Origin: Nitrosococcus oceani ATCC 19707 | GTDB taxonomy: Bacteria; Pseudomonadota; Gammaproteobacteria; Nitrosococcales; Nitrosococcaceae | DNA: 32,000 nt | Assembly: GCF_000012805.1 (NCBI RefSeq) | Contig: NC_007484.1 | Location: 2,370,001-2,402,000, forward strand | Direction: 5' to 3' | In this document: piece after piece, positions 5,862 through 13,911 of the stretch | Layout: each line of letters opens with the position of its first letter | Position numbering within the stretch: the first letter of the stretch is position 1 | Translations under genes and position numbers: made by a program | Notes under the pieces: model-generated | Databases searched by the model: none | Seen by the model: the letters and a program-made list of their open reading frames with translations, nothing else | Told to the model about the DNA's origin: nothing

Positions 5862-6950
5862 CTCGGCCAGTTTACCATTCCGGCAATACCAGCATCGGTC
5901 GCAGCGACTTGCTAACAACACCGCCTACTACCCGGCGGCAGTGATCCAACTACACGAGCGCCAACATTTGAACCAGAAAGCTTGAGCTCATGGTCGCCCT
6001 GAAGAAAGGTAGGCTAGAGCACGGCCCAAGTTAAGATAGTAGGAGAAGCGCGTCTGATAGAGAGCGCTCTTGGATCGGGGTGGCAATACAGCGGTCAAAT
6101 GTATAAATTATCCAACAGGAGATAGGTCGGCGCTTCGTGGCCTTGCTTCCTGCTTGCGATGCGCTCATCCTAAGCGCCCGCTCCGCGCGGGGTGCCGCTT
6201 AACTTTGGCCCGATAGCTGCCTACTGCTGATCCATGGCGATGACAATAAACCCGGTTACTCCACGCTAAAGATTAGAAGATTTATGAACTTTACCGCTTA
6301 TCCATGATCTAATTTTGAGTTAGCCAAAAATCTGAATATGGAGGGCGATTTTCTTATTTTTCAGTTGGATATTTCTTTAAACATCGAAAAAAATACTGAA
6401 TGAAAAGCCGAAATAACATAATAATGGCGGGGCACCGCATACCCTATCCCCTACAAAAACCCATAGTCTTCTCACAGGCAGAGGAAAGCGGTTCTATTAC
6501 TTATTACAATCTGGTGCTATCTCTCAAGAACACCTTAAGGCAATATAACGGATTAAATTCAAGAGACACGGGGGGGAAGGACAACCCTTGGCCATAAAGG
6601 CGCTTTGAGGGCATAGGCAGTATTCTATAAATTCAAGCCTCTATATTTTCATTGAGATCCCTTCGGGATCGTCACCAAAAACGGAATATATCCTAGCAGA
6701 TGCCAGAGCGGCCCAAATTAATCCTACATTTCTAACTCCTAACGGTGAATGGAGAGTCCATGCCACTCCAAGGAGAAAAAATGTAACGATGGCGTGCCGC
6801 ATCAACCCCACAACGGCAGAAATATCACTGCCTTCACGACGAAAGGCTGGCTATGGGGGGCAGAAGCCTCGGATCTCAATTTACTTAACCATACCATAGT
6901 AAATGGTTTTTAAAAAACATCGTATATTAGCAATACAGGAGAATAGGTCC

Positions 6951-8690
6951 ATGGATTTTGAAATGAGACAAGAGGAGCTGAAAAGGCTTATTCTCAAAGG
7001 CAAGGCGCAAGGTTTGCTGACTGAGGAAGAGTTACAAGACTACATTATACAGGAAGTGGAGGACAGTGATGAGGCTGAAACCATGGCCCATCTCTTTCAT
7101 CATCACCAGGGTCTCGATGAATTTAACGAAGCCCTAGATTCCACACTATTGCTTAAAAATAGCTCGGAGGAGGAAATAGCTGAAACACTTCCGACTTTAG
7201 AAGGAGAAAGCACGGGAGCAGTTAGTGATATGGTCTATGCCTACATGCGGGAGATGGGCGCCCATGCACTCCTTACCCGCGAGGAAGAAATCACCTTAGC
7301 CAAGGCGATTGAGACAGGATTAAGCCAAAGCACCGAAGCCTTAGGTAACTGTCCCGCAGCCGTGGCTGAGCTGGTACGTTGGGCCGAAGAAGTGGCCACA
7401 GGCAAGGGCCGTTTGAAAGACTGGCTAACTGGCTTTACTGAACCAGAAATAGAAGAAACTGAGATAAAGGACGGGAAAGAATCAAGTTTGGAAGCAACGA
7501 GCAAGCATCTATCCCGAGTCCGCACTCTTTATGGCAACCTAGAGGCAACTTTAGCCCAAGAAGGGGTAGCAAGCCCCCGAGCACGAGAGCTGCGAAGGAA
7601 ACTTGCTCGGGAATTTCAGTTCCTGCGCCTAATTCCGTCCAGAATTAATCAGCTGACTCAATTGGTGCAAGGCTGGATAAGCAAAGCCCAAACCCAGGAA
7701 CAAATCATAAGGTCCTGCTGTATCCATCAAGGTGAGATGTCCCAAGAGGACTTTTGGCACAATTTTTCCAGCGGTACCACTCATCCCCAGTGGTTGGATG
7801 ACCTTCTAGCCCACAGTCGGATAGACCGGCAAGGGCTGCAGACCCAAGCCAAAACGCTTCGAGCAGCCCAAGCAGTACTGCTTCAGGTGGAAGTCGAGGC
7901 GGGACTCCCTCTGGACGAGCTCAAGGCAATTCACCAACGCCTGGTCCGAAGCCAATTTCAAGCGCAGCGGGCTAAAGCACAAATGGTGGAGGCCAATCTG
8001 CGCCTGGTGGTCTCGGTAGCGAAGAAGTATCGCAATCGGGGATTGACCTTTCTGGATTTGATCCAAGAGGGGAATATCGGCTTGATGAAAGCGGTGGACA
8101 AATTCGATTACCACCGGGGCTATAAATTCTCTACCTATGCCCATTGGTGGATCCGGCAGGCAATTACGCGAGCTATTGACGATCAGTCCCGAACTATCCG
8201 TATTCCGGTCCATGTGATGGAGAAACTCAGCAAACTCAACCGGGCCTCCTACCAGCTCCGACAGGAAAAAGGCCGCGAAGGCCGTCCTGAGGAATTGGCC
8301 GAACGTCTCGCCCTGTCCGAGCAACAGATTCATCGTATGCACGAGATCGCTAAACAACCCATCTCCTTGGAAACCCCCCTAGGTAAAGATGAGGACTCGC
8401 AATTAGGTGAACTCATGGAAGACGAGCAAGTCCCAAATCCCATGGAGGTTGCTATCACAGCCGGACTGCAGACCGGGGCCCAGCAGTTGCTCGCAGCACT
8501 TTCTCCCCGAGAGGCCCAGGTGGTTGCCATGCGCTTTGGGATCGGTATGGACACTGACCATACCTTGGGAGAAGTGGCCCAGCAATTTGATTTGAGCCGG
8601 GAACGAATCCGGCAAATCGAGGCTCAAGCCTTGGGTAAACTGCGTCGCTTGGGCCACTCCAAGGCCCTGCGCAACTTTCTCGAAGACTAG
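6951..8690 (+). CDS. rpoD: RNA polymerase sigma-70 family factor, RpoD-like (group 1/2)
   Basis: Region 1.1-like acidic N-terminus; region 1.2 ([24 protein letters not shown]); region 2 ([41 protein letters not shown]); region 3 ([16 protein letters not shown]); region 4.2 HTH ([28 protein letters not shown]). The ATG at 6951 has an AGGAG SD 9 nt upstream. The longer ORF start at 6903 has none. Confidence 0.88.
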   Translation: [579 protein letters not shown]

Positions 8691-8773
8691 GCCACCATTT
8701 AAAAATGGCTATCCTCTATAGGAAAGGGTTTATAGGAACAAAAAAGCCTGCAAAGATTACCCCCAACCCTTCA

Positions 8774-8822
8774 GGCGCACCGGAACAAGGAATAAGTTCC
8801 GGGCGCCTCTTTATTTCGTTTG
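8774..8822 (+). terminator. rho-independent terminator of the sigma factor gene
   Basis: GGCGCACCGGAAC (8774-8786) pairs with GTTCCGGGCGCC (8796-8807) with one bulge, followed by TCTTTATTTCGTTT. Confidence 0.55.
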
Positions 8823-8824
8823 GT

Positions 8825-9169
8825 TTATCTACCGGTGCTCTCACCAACGGCGAAAGCAATAGCTTCGGGAATAAAATCGGAAAGCATGGCAACTAGCTGA
8901 CCGGCTGAGCTTTTTAGTTGATTCAAAAGCATATCGAGGAGGTAGAAGAAAACTCCTCCTGCTCCGAGACATAAGGCTGCGGTTAAAGGTGATAGTTTAC
9001 TAACCCCATCAGACACTAAGACCAGTGCCACAGCAGATATAAGCGCACCACCGCCGAAAGCAACCATAAACTGCCGAGATCTTTGCCTCAAAAATGCGGG
9101 ATGCATAAAATCAAGGCGGGCAGGCCCAGCGAAAAGCGATAACAACATGATGTAGACGTATTCAGGCAT
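8825..9169 (-). CDS. small integral membrane protein; possibly a truncated ZIP-family metal transporter fragment or a fourth integron cassette ORF
   Basis: 114 aa with about 3 hydrophobic helices. The C-terminal DFIPEAIAFAVG loosely resembles the mid-protein (N/D)xPE(G/A) motif of ZIP permeases, which are normally about 250 aa. There is no obvious SD. The ORF starts 10 nt after the attC-like GTTATAC box. Confidence 0.35.
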   Translation of the reverse strand: MPEYVYIMLLSLFAGPARLDFMHPAFLRQRSRQFMVAFGGGALISAVALVLVSDGVSKLSPLTAALCLGAGGVFFYLLDMLLNQLKSSAGQLVAMLSDFIPEAIAFAVGESTGR

Positions 9170-9178
9170 ATCTATTAG

Positions 9179-9223
9179 GTATAACGCCGCATTCAGCGGC
9201 TTGTCCGCCGCAACGCCTTGTTA
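9179..9223 (-). other. attC-like site 3, distal part (R' box GTTATAC); the proximal part is at 10127-10138 on the other side of the IS
   Basis: Read on the minus strand with the IS removed: GGCTAG[TA]ACAAGGCGTTGCGGCGGACAAGCCGCTGAATGCGGCGTTATAC. It contains TAAC-AA...GGAC, an internal GCGGC/GCCGC stem and GC-GTTATAC. The GGCTAgtAAC box nearly complements GTTAGCC, which opens this cassette. Confidence 0.45.
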
Positions 9224-10128
9224 TAGTAGTTCGCATTAATAAGGTTACATGCTATGTTTACGGATGAGGTATTCAATAGACCTGAGAGAAGCCGTAATCT
9301 CGTACGTAAATAATGGCGGTAGCAAGAGCGACGCTGCTCGAATATTCAATATTTCGCGCCATACGCTGTATAGATGGCTTGGAATGGATGATTTGCGTCC
9401 TTAAAAGCCTGGTTTTCGCCGTAGGAAGATCGATAAAATGGCTCTCAAGGCACATGCTCAGCAATTCCCTGATCTGTATCTTCATGAACGGGCTGCTATC
9501 TTTGATGTTCACACCAGCTCAATGGGGCGGATGTTGAAGAAGTTGGGGATCGTAAAAAAAGAACGTCAGTATAAAGAGCGTTGCCTTATGAAAAGGCAAG
9601 AGTTTTGTAAGAAACTCAAAGCCGAGCATCGAATGTTTGGATTCAAGAACCTGATTGACGTTGATGAGACTGGCTTTGATGCCCCTACACCCAGGCCATC
9701 TAGCTGGGCGGTGAAGGGCTGTAGAATCTTTGGCGAAATCACAGGACAGCGCAAACGTAGAACAAATCTGCTCATGGCACAGCGCCACGGCGCAAAAGGC
9801 CGGGAGAAAGAATGGCTAGCGCCGATGCTGTTTAAAGGATCGTGCAATGCACAGCTTTTTGAAATGTGGGTTGAACAATGCCTAATGAAAGAACTGCATG
9901 AACCCACCATCGTGGTCATGGACAATTCCTCATTTCACAACCATAAACGCGTTCAAGATATTCTGGCCAAGGGCTATCTCACTATTTGATCCCGCTACCG
10001 CCCTACTCACCCGACTTAAATCCCATCGAAAGAACATTTGGCGCACTCAAAAAACGAAGGCAAGGTATCCCGCAAGACACAACAATCGATCAACTCATAT
10101 TGTCCTATTATTAATGCGAACTACTATA
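9222..10128 (+). mobile_element. IS630 (Tc1/mariner)-family insertion sequence, about 0.9 kb, flanked by a TA duplication
   Basis: Perfect 21-bp terminal inverted repeats: TATAGTAGTTCGCATTAATAA at 9222-9242 and its reverse complement at 10108-10128. The outermost TA on each side is the expected TA target duplication. The interior encodes an IS630-type DDE transposase. Confidence 0.85.
9264..10114 (+). pseudogene. IS630-family transposase, inactivated (in-frame TAA plus frameshift)
   Basis: MRYSIDLREAVISYVNNGGSKSDAARIFNISRHTLYRWL (HTH) runs into an in-frame TAA at 9402-9404. It continues in the same frame as KPGFRRRKIDK...DVDETGF...VVMDNSSFH to a TGA at 9987-9989. The conserved LIPLPPYSPDLNPIERTFGALKK segment then follows in another frame (9986-10114). 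The DDE triad is recognisable (DETG, MDNS, NPIE). Confidence 0.85.
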
Positions 10129-10138
10129 CTAGCCAGCG

Positions 10139-10850
10139 CTACGTGTATCTTGGAGTTCCGAGCAAGCTTGAGACCCTAACGCGATCCCCTAAGCTCGCCA
10201 TTTCTGCGCTCTTTCGTGTGAGCTGTACATCCTGGGGCTCAAGAGATGGATCTAGAAAAATGCGATCCACAAGCATGTCAAAGTCGAAAGGAGCCCGAAT
10301 TCTTTGCTCTGGCACAGTTACGCCAAACTCTTCAGCAAAGCTAAGTGAAATTCTGAGGCGAAACTCCCGCTTCGACGAGAATGCCATGTGCTTGTGCCAG
10401 AATTTTCCAATTGCATTGATGCGAAGTCTTTCATGAAGTAAGCCAACATACTTCACATTGCCGCCCCAAAACTCTTCGCCCTTATGCTGGGCTTCCAATC
10501 GGAAGGTTGCAGCTGATGCTGACAACCTCCCAAGGCTTGTACAGGCGCCTGCGTAGAGTTGCCACAGTGCATCGCTCTCATACGAAGAACGATGCCAGCA
10601 ACTGATTTCTGTCAGTCGGCGAAGCTGCTCAAACACGCGCTCGCCAAGATCACCTTCCAAGCGAGTAGCGAGGGTCAATGGAGGCATCGGGAGGCAGTAC
10701 AGCAGTTGCACCTTCGAACGGATCTTGAAACTGACGGGCAGCAACGAAGTAAAGCTCCCCTGTCTGTAGAAGATCTACGAATCGCTCTGTCTTTAAATAG
10801 CGCCACAGGTGCTCGTTTTCATCAATATCTTGATCGGTTGCGTTACGCAA
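10139..10850 (-). pseudogene. DUF2971-family protein, frameshifted (cassette 3)
   Basis: The N-terminal piece (10850-10650; TTG start with an AGGAG SD 6 nt upstream) carries HLWRYLKTERFVDLLQTGELYFVAARQFQDPFEG, the DUF2971 N-terminal signature. The remainder (ISCWHRSSYESDALWQLYAG...) is in a different frame (10744-10139). The two ORFs overlap at 10650-10744. Confidence 0.6.
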
Positions 10851-10864
10851 GTCGGGCTCCTACT

Positions 10865-10931
10865 GGCTAACGCTAAAGCTGTGTGTGGGGCGCGCAGCGA
10901 AGCAAGCGTCCTACACGAGCGTCTTGTCAGC
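10865..10931 (-). other. attC-like site 2
   Basis: Minus strand: AGCTGACAAGACGCTCGTGTAGGACGC...GCGCCCCACACACAGCTTTAGCGTTAGCC. The 3' end CTTTAGC-GTTAGCC fits the attC L'-R' consensus. The 5' box is GAC rather than AAC, so it is degenerate. The stop codon of the upstream ORF lies inside the 5' box. Confidence 0.45.
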
Positions 10932-11508
10932 TGTGAGTAAACGAATTCGATTTATTTGACTCATGCACTTCGAAACAAAAGGCAATAGTCACTGAATTAG
11001 CCGAAGTAACAATCTCCAGTGTCCAATTATTTTCTGGCCACTCCCAAAAGCCATCCATATATCGTTCTGTACAGATACGGTCGATTACACTCACTAGCTT
11101 GCTTTCTTTGTTTTCAAGCTTAGCATTAACAATGTTAAATGAGTTTTTATATAGCTCTTTAGCTTTGCTTATAAAGTGCTCTGCACCAGAGTTCAGCGAG
11201 CAATAGCCGGGATAGCTAACCGCCTTATAAACGGTTCTTTTATTGATGCCTTTTCCTGGATTAAAAATTGGCGTTTGGTGTATAAAATAGATTTCCTTCA
11301 AATACACATTGCCGCCACGGGAACTAAGTTCAAGATTAAGCTGGATATCATATGTTCCATCTTCTATAGCACGAATATTAGCACCATGAAGGCTTGCTCT
11401 AAATGTTGGTTTCCTAAAATACTCTTTATGAGCAAGTATTCCCAAGTTGATAATTCCGAGCCCTAGCCCCCCAAAGGCTGCAATTGTGCGAGCCATTTCT
11501 AAATCCAT
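10927..11508 (-). CDS. hypothetical single-pass membrane protein (193 aa), cassette 2
   Basis: The ATG at 11508 is preceded by AAGGA 6 nt upstream. N-terminal TM helix (ARTIAAFGGLGLGIINLGILA) followed by a soluble domain with no motif I recognise. The coding sequence is visibly AT-rich relative to its flanks. The longer ORF-track start (11598) would run through attC-like site 1 and the toxin gene. Confidence 0.6.
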   Translation of the reverse strand: MDLEMARTIAAFGGLGLGIINLGILAHKEYFRKPTFRASLHGANIRAIEDGTYDIQLNLELSSRGGNVYLKEIYFIHQTPIFNPGKGINKRTVYKAVSYPGYCSLNSGAEHFISKAKELYKNSFNIVNAKLENKESKLVSVIDRICTERYMDGFWEWPENNWTLEIVTSANSVTIAFCFEVHESNKSNSFTHS

Positions 11509-11521
11509 ATCTGTTCCTTTT

Positions 11522-11585
11522 TTACAACTTCGGGGAGTTGACTGCGCCGACGAAGGAGGCGTCCGAGTTGAGCACCGAGTTAGGT
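11522..11585 (-). other. attC-like site 1
   Basis: Minus strand: ACCTAAC-TCGGTGCTCAACTCGGACGCC...GTCGGCGCAGTCAACTCCCCGAA-GTTGTAA (64 nt). CTAACTCGG pairs with CCGA(A)GTTG leaving one extrahelical base. The R'' box ACCTAAC contains the toxin stop codon and is the exact complement of GTTAGGT at 12156-12162. Confidence 0.5.
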
Positions 11586-11873
11586 GCGTGATTTCCAATA
11601 ACCCGGCCGCTGCCTAAGATGCATGACCGCGATGATCTCTATGCGCTCATTACTAACGCGGTATATGACACCATAGGGAAAGCGCAGTATCCGACACTTC
11701 CTTGCTTCCCCTTCGATGCGACGATAGATCAATGGATTTCTCCTTATTCGGGAAATCGTGTCGTTCAACGCTTCCAGAAAGCGTACCTCAAGATTAGACT
11801 GCTGCTCTTTATAAAATGCAGCCGCCTCATCGGCCTCTGCAAACGCTTCCGGATGAAACCAACAGGGTTTCAT
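11580..11873 (-). CDS. type II toxin, RelE/ParE family
   Basis: 97 aa with the ParE-like pattern F.PEA..E..EA..FY......L..RF...L...I..I..NP......EG..R...L.RFPYGVIYRV....IEIIAVMH.R.RP. The start overlaps the antitoxin stop (ATGA at 11870-11873). Confidence 0.85.
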   Translation of the reverse strand: MKPCWFHPEAFAEADEAAAFYKEQQSNLEVRFLEALNDTISRIRRNPLIYRRIEGEARKCRILRFPYGVIYRVSNERIEIIAVMHLRQRPGYWKSRT

Positions 11874-12100
11874 GAATATTTTTTCTGAAGCTGGACCAAG
11901 GCGTTTTCTGCTGATATGAGCTGTACTTTTCCTTCATCTATTTCACGACAGCGTTTCTGAATTTCCTTCATCCACTCATCTGAAATCAGAAAGTCCTCTT
12001 CATAATCTAGACTTTCCAACAGTAGCTCCGCTAGGGACGCTCTAGCGGTTGATGGGAGCTTGAGGGCTTTTTCGGCGATTTCTTCGATATCAGACTTCAT
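11870..12100 (-). CDS. type II antitoxin, putative addiction-module component (Unstab_antitox/TIGR02574-like)
   Basis: MKSDIEEIAEKALKLPSTARASLAELLLESLDYEED...SDEWMKEIQKRCREIDEGKVQLISAE matches that family's pattern. The ATG at 12100 has GAGG 8 nt upstream. The gene is coupled to the toxin gene. Confidence 0.8.
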   Translation of the reverse strand: MKSDIEEIAEKALKLPSTARASLAELLLESLDYEEDFLISDEWMKEIQKRCREIDEGKVQLISAENALVQLQKKYS

Positions 12101-12155
12101 AACAAAACCTCGCATAGTCAACTTATTACGTGTATCTCGGCCCTGCTGCTGCCGC

Positions 12156-12300
12156 ACCTAACAATTTATTCTCAAGTAAATACGCCCTGATAAGTTGATA
12201 TTACCCAATAAATTAGGGGTTTTTGCCAGGATAAGTTCCTATTTAGGTAAATTTGCCCTAATAACTTGATATTAATTTAAAAATAGGGCAAATACGCCTG
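12156..12300 (-). other. candidate attI region with core site GTTAGGT and flanking direct repeats
   Basis: A perfect GTTRRRY core (GTTAGGT on the minus strand, 12162-12156) lies at the boundary of the first cassette. On the intI side are two 28-nt direct repeats (12176-12203 and 12247-12274) plus a third partial copy at 12285-12298. Confidence 0.4.
12176..12274. repeat. two 28-nt imperfect direct repeats, 71 bp apart
   Basis: GTAAATACGCCCTGATAAGTTGATATTA (12176-12203) versus GTAAATTTGCCCTAATAACTTGATATTA (12247-12274), 24/28 identical. AGGGCAAATACGCC at 12285-12298 repeats the AAATACGCC core and is an inverted copy of ATTTGCCCT. Confidence 0.7.
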
Positions 12301-12338
12301 CATATTTTTTAGAAATTATCATAAATGCTAGCTAAAAG

Positions 12339-12580
12339 ATGTCAAGGGAAAACACCCCTACTTGGCTGGAAGAAGTTCGCCGGATTATGCGCTTAAAACA
12401 TGACTCCCTTCATACGGAGAGAACTTACAGCAGATGGATTAAATAGTTTATTAGGTTTCATCGGCTGGCAGAGAAAGATGAGTTGTTTGTTGAAAGCCGA
12501 GGCAAAGGTTGAGTCTTTTTTAAGCGGGTTGGCAGTAGAGTGGAATGTAGCGGTTGCCACGCAAAACCAGGCGATGAACG
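12339..12580 (+). pseudogene. intI: integron-integrase-like tyrosine recombinase, N-terminal remnant only
   Basis: MSRENTPTWLEEVRRIMRLKHDSLHTERTYSRWIK*(TAG 12444)FIRFH..., then a TGA at 12510. A frame change leads to AEAKVESFLSGLAVEWNVAVATQNQAMN. For comparison, the IntI1 N-terminus is [32 protein letters not shown]...SSEVEAFLSWLA. Homology ends at about 12580, so the catalytic domain is absent. Confidence 0.7.
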
Positions 12581-12745
12581 ACGATGATTTACAGCCATAT
12601 TTTAAATTAGGGCGGCCATGGGGTGACAAGCCCATTGGAGAACTTGGAGGGGTAATCCCCCTCCCTCCCTTTCTCCTACCCCATAGCGACCACCTCACAA
12701 ACCCTTCCTCTGCATCTCATTCCTCAATCATCGAACCTCTCTCCT

Positions 12746-12901
12746 CTAACTTTTATGCCTTCGGTTTCTAAGTTGACCCACCCTCATGATTAGCAAGGCC
12801 GTCAAGATCAACCATCCAACAGGATAGTGGATTAAACCCATAAAAAAGGCTCCCAACGTTAATACTAGTAAAACACTCAATAGCAAGAGATACCCATCCA
12901 T
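12746..12901 (-). CDS. possible small hydrophobic peptide (51 aa), not in the ORF track
   Basis: ATG at 12901 with GGAG 8 nt upstream. Translation: MDGYLLLLSVLLVLTLGAFFMGLIHYPVGWLILTALLIMRVGQLRNRRHKS, i.e. two predicted TM helices and a basic tail. No homology is recognised. Confidence 0.3.
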   Translation of the reverse strand: MDGYLLLLSVLLVLTLGAFFMGLIHYPVGWLILTALLIMRVGQLRNRRHKS

Positions 12902-12913
12902 ATTTTCAACTCC

Positions 12914-12942
12914 TTGATAATTATAAATAAATTTTATATAAT
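12914..12942 (+). promoter_or_regulatory. candidate sigma-70 promoter for hslO
   Basis: TTGATA (12914-12919), 17-nt spacer, TATAAT (12937-12942), about 100 nt upstream of the hslO ATG. Caveat: this is an AT-rich region where chance matches occur. Confidence 0.45.
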
Positions 12943-13041
12943 CGTATAAGCGCCATTGAACTCCGCCCTAAAAGGGTGTCTAATGACGTTTCCTATATTG
13001 TATGTATATAACCTATATTAAATCTCGGTAAGTTTCCTTTA

Positions 13042-13911
13042 ATGAATAATCGGGATAACCTACATCGCTTCTTATTTGAAGAAGCTAAAATCAGGGGCGA
13101 ACTGGTACAGCTCGACGCTAGCTGGCGGGCCGTGCTTGCCTGCCATGATTACCCCGCCGTTGTACAGTCCCAACTCGGTCAGGCGTTAGCGGCTACGATT
13201 TTGCTCTCGGCTACCATTAAATTTAAAGGCTCCCTCATCCTCCAGACGCAAAGTGAAGGCCCTCTGCAAACCCTAGTAGCACAAGCTACTCATCATAGAA
13301 CTTTGCGTGGATTAGCCCGCTGGGATGGCGATGTTCCTCATGGATCACTATCGGAAACTTATGGTTCTGGCCGACTGGCACTTACTATCCAAACAGAAGG
13401 AAAAAACCCCTATCAAGGCATTGTTTCCCTAGAGGGTGTGAATTTGGCGGAAGCACTGCAAACTTATTTTTCCCGCTCGGAACAACTTCGAACTCGCCTT
13501 TGGCTGGTTGCGGATGAGCAGCAGGCAGTGGGATTGTTCCTCCAGGAACTCCCCTCTCAACAAGGGCACAAGACTGACTGGGAGCGTATCGCGCTGCTAG
13601 CAAGTACGGTCACGACACAAGAAATGCTATCGTTGCCCAGCACGGAGCTGCTCTACCGCCTATTCAATGAAGAGCAAGTTCGTTTGTTTGAGCCAGAGCC
13701 GGTCTCTTTTCGCTGTGGTTGTTCCCGGGGGCGGATCGAACAAACCCTAGCAGCTTTAGGACGAGAGGAGATGGAATCTATCTTGAAAGAACAAGGCATA
13801 ATTGAAGTAGACTGTGAGTTTTGCAACCGCCATTATAATTTTGACCGAGTGGACATGGAGCAACTATTTACTGAACAAGTGAAAGCTCCAGTGACCTCTA
13901 CACGACATTAA
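13042..13911 (+). CDS. hslO: redox-regulated chaperone Hsp33
   Basis: 289 aa. N-terminal LHRFLFEEAKIRGELV; C-terminal zinc/redox switch CGCS...(30 aa)...CEFC (FRCGCSRGRIE...VDCEFCNRHYNF). Confidence 0.93.
   Translation: MNNRDNLHRFLFEEAKIRGELVQLDASWRAVLACHDYPAVVQSQLGQALAATILLSATIKFKGSLILQTQSEGPLQTLVAQATHHRTLRGLARWDGDVPHGSLSETYGSGRLALTIQTEGKNPYQGIVSLEGVNLAEALQTYFSRSEQLRTRLWLVADEQQAVGLFLQELPSQQGHKTDWERIALLASTVTTQEMLSLPSTELLYRLFNEEQVRLFEPEPVSFRCGCSRGRIEQTLAALGREEMESILKEQGIIEVDCEFCNRHYNFDRVDMEQLFTEQVKAPVTSTRH

Follow-up and report, generated by a model that had tools for sequence, protein, structure and literature searches.

The interval between rpoD and hslO of Nitrosococcus oceani ATCC 19707 very probably holds a fossil sedentary chromosomal integron, consisting of a broken integrase gene (intI), an attI site beside it and three minus-strand cassettes with damaged attC sites. 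It lies within a 32,000-nt stretch (contig NC_007484.1, positions 2,370,001 to 2,402,000), which is referred to here as the window and whose numbering is used throughout. A preliminary description, made from the letters alone, had read the region as a small sedentary integron whose integrase has been inactivated, and this reading is supported by the evidence from intI, attI, the attC sites, the cassettes and the sister species N. watsonii. The main features, read in the direction of the array, are as follows, with attC scores taken from a covariance model (R1) that is described below and open reading frames abbreviated as ORFs.

12339-12646, plus strand: intI pseudogene (translation, profile matches, tblastn, blastn)
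12345-12318, minus strand: candidate Pc-like promoter, TTGACA-16 nt-TATGAT (consensus scan, 11/12 matches)
12156-12317, minus strand: attI, with crossover core GTTAGGT at 12162-12156 and two conserved direct repeats
11528-12161, minus strand: cassette 1, an intact toxin-antitoxin pair (Pfam and NCBIfam hits, sequence check)
12100-11870, minus strand: antitoxin, 76 amino acids (aa) (PF09720, E 3.8e-15)
11873-11580, minus strand: ParE-type toxin, 97 aa (PF05016, E 5.5e-10)
11522-11585, minus strand: site 1, a broken attC (R1 scores, N. watsonii orthologue, alignment A4)
10871-11527, minus strand: cassette 2, with an intact ORF at 11508-10927 (193 aa, Noc_2070)
10865-10932, minus strand: site 2, attC of cassette 2 (R1 19.8 bits, E 0.0085, full-length match)
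9185-10870, minus strand: cassette 3, DUF2971 pseudogene Noc_2069, in which a frameshift leaves ORFs 10850-10650 and 10744-10139
9179-9226, minus strand: site 3, attC of cassette 3 (R1 36 bits, E 1.1e-6)

The integrase gene is a remnant that keeps both ends

An IntI-like N-terminal domain interrupted by a TAG, a TGA and a frame change had been recognized at 12339-12580, and both the translation and the matches to TIGR02249 and PF13495 agree with this. IntI residues 1-56 are encoded in frame 1 at 12339-12506 (MSRENTPTWLEEVRRIMRLKHDSLHTERTYSRWIK*FIRFH..., with the TAG at 12444 as stop codon 36), and residues ~53-80 follow in the +1 frame up to 12579 (AEAKVESFLSGLAVEWNVAVATQNQAMN), the frameshift being due to an extra C near 12497; the TGA lies at 12510 within the same N-terminal stretch, 12339-12579. 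The preliminary description had let the homology end at about 12580 and had considered the catalytic half to be gone, but a third frame at 12578-12646 reads TTMIYSHILN*GGHGVTSPLENL, which corresponds to IntI residues 304-326, in-frame stop included. Since this piece is present, the lesion is an internal deletion and the C-terminus has not been lost. All three pieces were placed by tblastn with an intact Methylococcales IntI (locus L021). The deletion spans ~223 codons (residues 81-303), equivalent by blastn to 669 bp of the metagenome locus L100, and it removed the catalytic core together with the IntI-specific insertion near patch III that is present in both L021 and L100.

When joined, the fragments matched the integron integrase model TIGR02249 in two stretches (E 1.2e-20; 74 bits, against a model cutoff of 265) and PF13495 (E 4.7e-17). 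Scored singly they gave E 6e-15 and 4e-5, and the sole models matched were TIGR02249 and PRK15417; XerC/XerD models gave no match at E<=0.1. In this comparison of IntI with Xer profiles, which the preliminary description had proposed, the remnant thus falls with integron integrases rather than with XerC/XerD or phage integrases. Its N-terminal part is 59–62% identical to the IntI of L021 and 70% identical to the intact 328-aa IntI of L100 (443 bits on TIGR02249). With stop codon 36, the frameshift and the loss of residues 81-303, the functional intI of a complete integron is absent.

A word-indexed protein search with the stop-containing fragment gave only 4 candidates, and an exhaustive HMMER search with the intI query P0001 returned short fragments only and was used just for the pattern with which loci were retrieved. 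Many short predicted proteins in the databases (hits P0008, P0009, P0021, P0024 and P0154) consist of an IntI N-terminal domain and an out-of-frame tail, ...HPEPGNEC..., which is the +1 reading of the conserved STQNQALNAL region. These are most likely frameshifted intI pieces selected by the frameshifted query, not a real family.

Homology with related loci stops at the attI crossover point

The left border of the intI platform was defined with a seven-way alignment of the window, two other Nitrosococcus loci (L007 from N. watsonii C-113 and L008 from N. oceani GCA_000740735.1) and four metagenome loci, two of which carry an intact IntI. The related loci are homologous to the window only up to the GTT at 12162-12160 (...AATWGTT) and are unrelated directly past it, as expected for an attI beside intI with insertion at G/TT. 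By blastn, six metagenome loci align with the window from 12154-12160 onward, and in a three-way Nitrosococcus alignment homology extends to AAC/AATTT (plus strand, window 12160), with unrelated sequence to the left. On the cassette strand the breakpoint reads ...AAATTG/TTAGGT in the window and ...AAATTG/TTCGCG in L007 and L008. Judged from these alignments, the GTT at 12162-12160 marks the point of cassette insertion. The core GTTAGGT had been noted as the exact complement of the ACCTAAC at 11585-11579, and a sequence check agrees.

Two direct repeats of ~20–28 bp, at 12274-12247 and 12203-12176 (TAATATCAAGTTATTAGGGCAAATTTAC / TAATATCAACTTATCAGGGCGTATTTAC), are conserved in the seven loci, share the motif AATATCAAGTTATC.GGCA and are candidate IntI-binding sites. 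The Pc-like site overlaps the intI start codon and points into the array; both of its hexamer positions are kept in the 7 aligned loci (pattern TTGACA-16-TATNNT), which is consistent with a Pc-type promoter. Together, the repeats and the promoter-like site seem to make up a phylogenetic footprint of attI in this IntI clade.

A covariance model recovers two of the three attC sites

Because a search of 8000-13500 against Rfam gave no attC-like match (four hits, all sub-threshold noise), we built an attC model of our own. Seed sites were harvested from 80 genome loci with relatives of the IntI N-terminal domain; candidates had to pass a filter for hairpins, and the R' box of each had to be the reverse complement of the R'' box that belongs to the following cassette. 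A filter for complementarity between R'' and R' of the same site had found almost nothing and was dropped as ill-conceived, since in R' the outer 4 nt are already part of the following cassette. The resulting model, R1, rests on 41 curated sites from unrelated integrons, including 4 from metagenome contigs with cassette 2 homologues, and excludes Nitrosococcus sequence. RNAalifold detected in the seed an L''/L' stem with bulges and compensatory changes in 12 of its 13 stem pairs; the AAC:GTT pairs were added to this structure before R1 was built. On 18 loci of IntI relatives, 8 of them fetched after R1 was built, R1 gave 48 hits at E<0.01, every one of them upstream of intI and on the cassette strand.

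R1 was then run with filters off over the whole window and both strands (64 kb searched). Exactly two hits reached E<0.01, a threshold to be read with the rough E-values of this model in mind, and they coincide with sites 3 and 2 on the predicted strand; everything else scored <=8 bits. Of the three attC sites proposed in the preliminary description, sites 2 and 3 were therefore matched and site 1 as a whole was not, being a truncated attC half. The R''-L''...L'-R' architecture is accordingly present at site 3 and at site 2 and is lacking in site 1 taken whole (0.9 bits). The invariant AAC/GTT boxes are disrupted at all three sites: site 2 has GAC, site 1 has lost its own R' and at site 3 an insertion sequence (IS) parts the AAC from GGCTAG.

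Folding energy was also tried as a detector. A constrained ranking of all AAC...GTT pairs left the candidate sites inseparable from the coding-sequence background, and single-site folds gave weak z-scores; free energy alone is unusable as an attC detector here.

Cassette 1 is an intact toxin-antitoxin cassette with a truncated attC

The antitoxin and toxin ORFs are both intact and overlap by 4 nt. As adjacent small ORFs with PF09720 and PF05016 domains they correspond to a type II toxin-antitoxin system of predicted activity. The cassette starts with TTAGGT and ends in the R'' box ACCTAAC with the TAA stop of the toxin gene inside; it obeys perfectly the chain rule that the start of a cassette is the reverse complement of its own R'' (TTAGGT / ACCTAA). 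That stop codons fall inside the first box had been stated in general, and the sequence bears this out for cassettes 1 and 2.

Site 1 had been described as an attC-type palindrome, but only its 5' half matches R1 (11.2 bits for 11585-11544 as a 3'-truncated match). This half, which comprises R'', L'', the loop and the first bases of L' of the attC of the toxin-antitoxin cassette, is identical to the 5' half of the corresponding attC in N. watsonii (L007 7510-7448), which is intact and scores 40.5 bits. The remainder of site 1 is composed of 11543-11529 (AGTCAACTCCCCGAA), the tail of an ORF-less element designated X (see below), and of GTTGTAA at 11528-11522. Compared with N. watsonii, the window is without ~159 nt that include the L' arm and R' of this attC and most of X (alignment A4). 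Site 1 is thus a deletion chimera in which the 5' half of the toxin-antitoxin attC is joined to the tail of X. GTTGTAA is not complementary to R'' of cassette 2 because this deletion fused site 1 to the X tail.

Cassettes 2 and 3 have homologues in attC arrays of other organisms

The product of Noc_2070 in cassette 2 has an N-terminal hydrophobic segment, and no Pfam or NCBIfam family matched it. Its homologues are 47–65% identical, the three closest coming from short metagenome contigs, and those in loci L009, L010 and L011 form cassettes that have attC sites of 45–53 bits on both sides. The boxes of site 2 are R'' AGCTGAC, with a TGA stop inside, and R' GTTAGCC. The homologous cassette in L009 starts with GTTAGCT and has R'' AGCTAAC with a TAA stop; the GAC of site 2 is therefore a single A-to-G change that kept the stop (TAA to TGA). 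The chain rule fails for cassette 2 in the window (GTTGTAA versus AGCTGAC), whereas the L009 homologue obeys it (GTTAGCT / AGCTAAC).

The two pieces of Noc_2069 in cassette 3 are ORFs of 66 and 201 aa; a merged query of 236 aa aligns over 100% of its length with DUF2971 proteins of 241–242 aa, at up to 71% identity. Homologues in Rhodanobacter (L095) and in metagenome contigs L094 and L097 are cassettes that start with GTTAGCC or GTTATCC, and in all three R'' GGCTAAC sits 4 nt past the stop. In L095 and L097 the attC of the DUF2971 cassette itself lies downstream of the gene (45.3 bits; 57 nt long in Rhodanobacter). In L094 it is cut by the contig end, and the attC of the preceding cassette scores 40.4 bits. 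The start of cassette 3, GTTAGCC AGTAGGAG..., is homologous to L094. Homologues of all three cassette genes of the window adjoin high-scoring attC sites in other organisms.

Site 3 is very short (~48–51 nt), with R' GTTATAC at 9185-9179. Its R'' box, GGCTAG-TA-AC, is split between 10134-10127 and 9221-9220 by an inserted element, so that it reads GGCTAG-TA-(IS)-TA-AC.

9224-10126, plus strand: IS630-family element, flanked by TA target duplications at 9222-9223 and 10127-10128

The TA duplication, perfect terminal inverted repeats (21 nt counting the TA) and Pfam matches to HTH_Tnp_IS630 and DDE_3 assign this element to the IS630 family; its transposase gene is broken into three ORFs (9249-9404, 9438-9989 and 9986-10114). 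Removal of the IS and one TA gives a pre-insertion R'' of GGCTAGTAAC, three bases more than the GGCTAAC of the homologues. The three extra bases sit exactly at the IS630 insertion point. As a speculation, the extra GTA could be the footprint of an earlier IS630 insertion and excision. Some positions in the preliminary description were 1–4 nt off: R'' of site 2 is 10932-10926, and GGCTAGTA lies at 10134-10127.

Related genomes share the platform and differ in cassettes

In N. watsonii C-113 the orthologous rpoD-hslO interval carries the intI/attI platform at 88–92% DNA identity and a different array, with a 221-aa ORF, a SIMPL-domain protein, IS fragments and two copies of X. The only cassette shared with the window is the toxin-antitoxin pair, the antitoxin gene of which has its 5' end cut off in N. 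watsonii by a different IS630-family element. Over 481 nt (window 11544-12024, L007 7469-7949) the two copies are 97.9% identical, compared with 82–89% for the flanks (binomial P 3e-13 at a rate of 89.3%). The common origin of the cassette is therefore more recent than that of the genomes, a timing that would fit cassette mobility after the split of N. oceani and N. watsonii.

A second dead intI/attI platform, 88% identical to that of the window, was observed at a different chromosomal place in N. oceani GCA_000740735.1 (L008 1148-1777). Its first ORF-bearing cassette encodes a TIR-domain protein and has an attC of 31.4 bits.

The three Nitrosococcus intI copies retain different parts by tblastn: residues 1-80 and 304-326 in the window, 1-~78 and 268-326 in L007, and 1-107 in L008. 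We also considered a left deletion border common to all three, which is refuted by these placements, as they correspond to three different deletions; the point lesions also differ in part. Judged from this pattern, intI was probably still whole in the ancestor that N. oceani and N. watsonii share, and its decay thereafter was independent. At the orthologous position, neither species yielded an intact intI. The comparison of related strains called for in the preliminary description has therefore come out in two ways: N. watsonii has the same platform with different cassettes and a break at the attI G/TT, as anticipated, but an intact orthologous intI was not recovered and N. oceani assemblies are invariant here, five of them matching the window at 100% identity across 8600-13100 or 9155-13100.

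Among the ten closest IntI homologues retrieved from Methylococcales genome assemblies, six loci (L014, L015, L018, L020, L024 and L082) have truncated intI ORFs of 63–225 aa, and they adjoin arrays with good attC sites. Decay of the integrase thus seems widespread in this clade.

An ORF-less repeated element in Nitrosococcus arrays

Element X, an ORF-less unit of ~150–160 nt, occurs at least four times in Nitrosococcus arrays. Its copies are:

L007 7308-7455 and 9700-9820: two copies in N. watsonii
L008 988-1150 and 1-60: two copies in N. oceani GCA_000740735.1
11529-11543 of the window: a 15-nt tail

Each copy of X begins directly behind the G of attI or an attC (G/TTCGCG...) and ends with ...CCCCGA/TT (end sequence CCAGTCAACTCCCCGA/TT). 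It carries CGCGAAT where an R'' would be expected, with AAT/ATT in place of the AAC/GTT boxes. Its bottom strand is exceptionally stable when folded, at -62 kcal/mol (z = -12.7; other z -6.4). X matched no Rfam family and scored just 8–10 bits with R1. One tentative explanation, which we regard as rather doubtful, is that X is a minimal cassette with an AAT/ATT recombination site that was mobilised and multiplied and that aided the attC-attC deletion in the window. If so, the integrase of this clade would have recombined a non-GTT core repeatedly, and a structured non-coding cassette would have multiplied in these arrays and supplied the homology or structure for that deletion.

Surroundings of the array

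The region is bounded by ordinary housekeeping genes, and no tRNA gene was found at it. Beyond site 3 lies a further ORF.

6903-8690: rpoD, on the side of cassette 3
13042-13911: hslO, encoding Hsp33, the flank on the side of intI
8825-9169, minus strand: fourth ORF, 114 aa, hydrophobic, starting 10 nt past R' GTTATAC of site 3

The ORF list agrees with the earlier remark that every ORF from 12100 down to 10139 is on the minus strand. The ORF blocks had also been called more AT-rich than their flanks, which holds for most of 9000-12500 (G+C 0.40–0.47, against 0.50–0.59 outside), with the exception of 10501-11000 (0.52). A literature search brought up no report of an N. oceani integron; its only matches concerned 'Nitrosococcus mobilis'.

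The stretches 8825-9169 and 8761-8824 are specific to N. oceani, and N. watsonii homology ends at the rpoD stop at 8691. Profile searches matched the 114-aa ORF to no protein family, and no significant R1 attC hit was obtained in 8691-8825. The fourth cassette that had been suggested here thus lacks the corresponding site, the best R1 score near 8761-8824 being 8 bits (E 5.6) on the wrong strand, and the ORF is best described as a possible fourth, terminal cassette. It has an internal 18-nt direct repeat (8842-8859 / 9046-9063). Beyond it, at 8761-8824, a G+C-rich hairpin resembles a bidirectional terminator shared with rpoD.

Alternative explanations and the case for a fossil

Several observations weigh against the interpretation of the region as a fossil integron. 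The significance of site 2 is marginal (19.8 bits and E 0.0085, on rough E-values). All attC sites in the R1 seed are longer than site 3, the scored R'' box of which includes IS-derived bases. Only cassette 1 follows the chain rule perfectly, and cassette 3 follows it only if the 3 extra nt are ignored (TTAGCC / GGCTAgtaA). Finally, the identity of all N. oceani assemblies in this region means that there is no within-species evidence of cassette movement.

In place of an integron, the region might be a genomic island with the remnant of an ordinary Xer or phage tyrosine recombinase, in which the hairpins are terminators or chance palindromes: the energy scan of AAC...GTT pairs leaves the three sites unremarkable, site 1 fails the attC model and the hairpin at 8761-8824 is terminator-like. 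Yet the intI fragments match integron-integrase models only, both significant R1 hits in 64 kb fall exactly on predicted sites and on the right strand, homology with six related loci stops at the G/TT core and the homologues of the three cassette genes adjoin high-scoring attC sites. We consider such an island exceedingly unlikely.

It could alternatively be supposed that the array is still alive, as a cluster of attC sites lacking an integrase (CALIN) whose cassettes can be excised or reshuffled by an integron integrase that another part of the genome or an incoming element provides. Two of the sites are still recognised by the attC model, the attI core and repeats are well kept, and the likeness of the toxin-antitoxin cassette to that of N. 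watsonii, far above that of the flanks, points to exchange after the species split; moreover, about half of all CALINs are in genomes that encode IntI elsewhere (PMC4889954). Against this, site 1 is without L' and its own R', site 2 has GAC instead of the invariant AAC and R'' of site 3 is parted from the rest by 905 bp of IS. Among the best 80 loci of a scan of genome contigs there was also no Nitrosococcus locus with an IntI of this clade, which is weak evidence. Because no attC site is intact, the locus can presumably no longer recombine, even with an integrase supplied in trans, and we judge continued mobilisation to be highly improbable. The state of the sites argues for an immobile fossil.

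The history of this fossil integron can be sketched as follows. An ancestor would have carried an active integrase belonging to the clade that today occurs in Methylococcales and in uncultured bacteria related to them. This enzyme would have placed circular cassettes at the attI G/TT (12162/12161), yielding an array on the minus strand that was transcribed from a promoter where intI and attI meet. The decay itself is visible in the sequence: intI gained a stop codon, was frameshifted and lost codons 81-303; the 5' half of the toxin-antitoxin attC was joined, through a deletion of ~159 nt, to the tail of the ORF-less element beside it; in the second attC the conserved AAC became GAC; an IS630 element entered the third R'' box at its TA and later decayed itself; and the DUF2971 cassette gene was frameshifted. 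The toxin-antitoxin pair and the 193-aa protein, predicted to be membrane-anchored, are probably still expressed, possibly from the promoter-like site at 12345-12318. An intact toxin-antitoxin pair would also stabilise the region.

Comparison with known integrons

The decay of integrase and attC sites is a well-known end for integrons, and the picture of how integrons work is unchanged by the present locus, which extends integron remnants to the ammonia-oxidising Nitrosococcus lineage. Among its closest known counterparts are the integrons of Methylococcales and related uncultured bacteria (L016, L021, L099, L100 and L103), which have in common with the window the IntI clade, an attI with two repeats and AATWGTT, the promoter position and cassettes on the strand opposite to intI. 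They possess an intact 328-aa IntI and at least eight high-scoring attC sites, whereas in the window intI is dead and all three sites are damaged.

Sedentary chromosomal integrons characteristically carry toxin-antitoxin cassettes (Richard et al. 2024, PMC13108822). As in these integrons and the Vibrio superintegrons, the window has such a cassette in its array and a fixed chromosomal position common to sister species. It differs in being non-functional, in holding 3–4 cassettes rather than tens to hundreds, in having attC sites that are dissimilar rather than a homogeneous family and in a toxin-antitoxin cassette oriented as the other cassettes are. The N. watsonii locus has the same flanks and the shared toxin-antitoxin cassette, with the attC of that cassette intact.

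By the definitions of IntegronFinder, the window locus is a CALIN with an intI remnant alongside, its sites at 10932-10865 and 9226-9179 being 1.6 kb apart (by R1, not by the model of IntegronFinder) and its intI a pseudogene. In the survey of Cury et al. (2016, PMC4889954), 15 of 279 CALINs were near an intI pseudogene and 38% had a neighbouring IS. The window resembles the CALINs beside an intI pseudogene in having at least two attC sites within 4 kb, a non-functional integrase, the pseudogene within 10 kb and an IS in the array. The pseudogene screen of that survey (>50% profile coverage) would probably miss the intI of the window, in which the IntI-specific C-terminal domain by which IntegronFinder detects pseudogenes is deleted. 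Unlike in those CALINs, attI and both ends of intI survive, and decay in place can therefore be read directly. The origin of most CALINs is unrecognisable, whereas the window shows every stage of decay at one locus (an intI deletion beside an intact attI, attC sites that are truncated, point-changed or split by an IS, and a frameshifted cassette gene), and its sister species shows two of the parts in their pre-damage form, which makes it a clean worked example of the passage from integron to CALIN.

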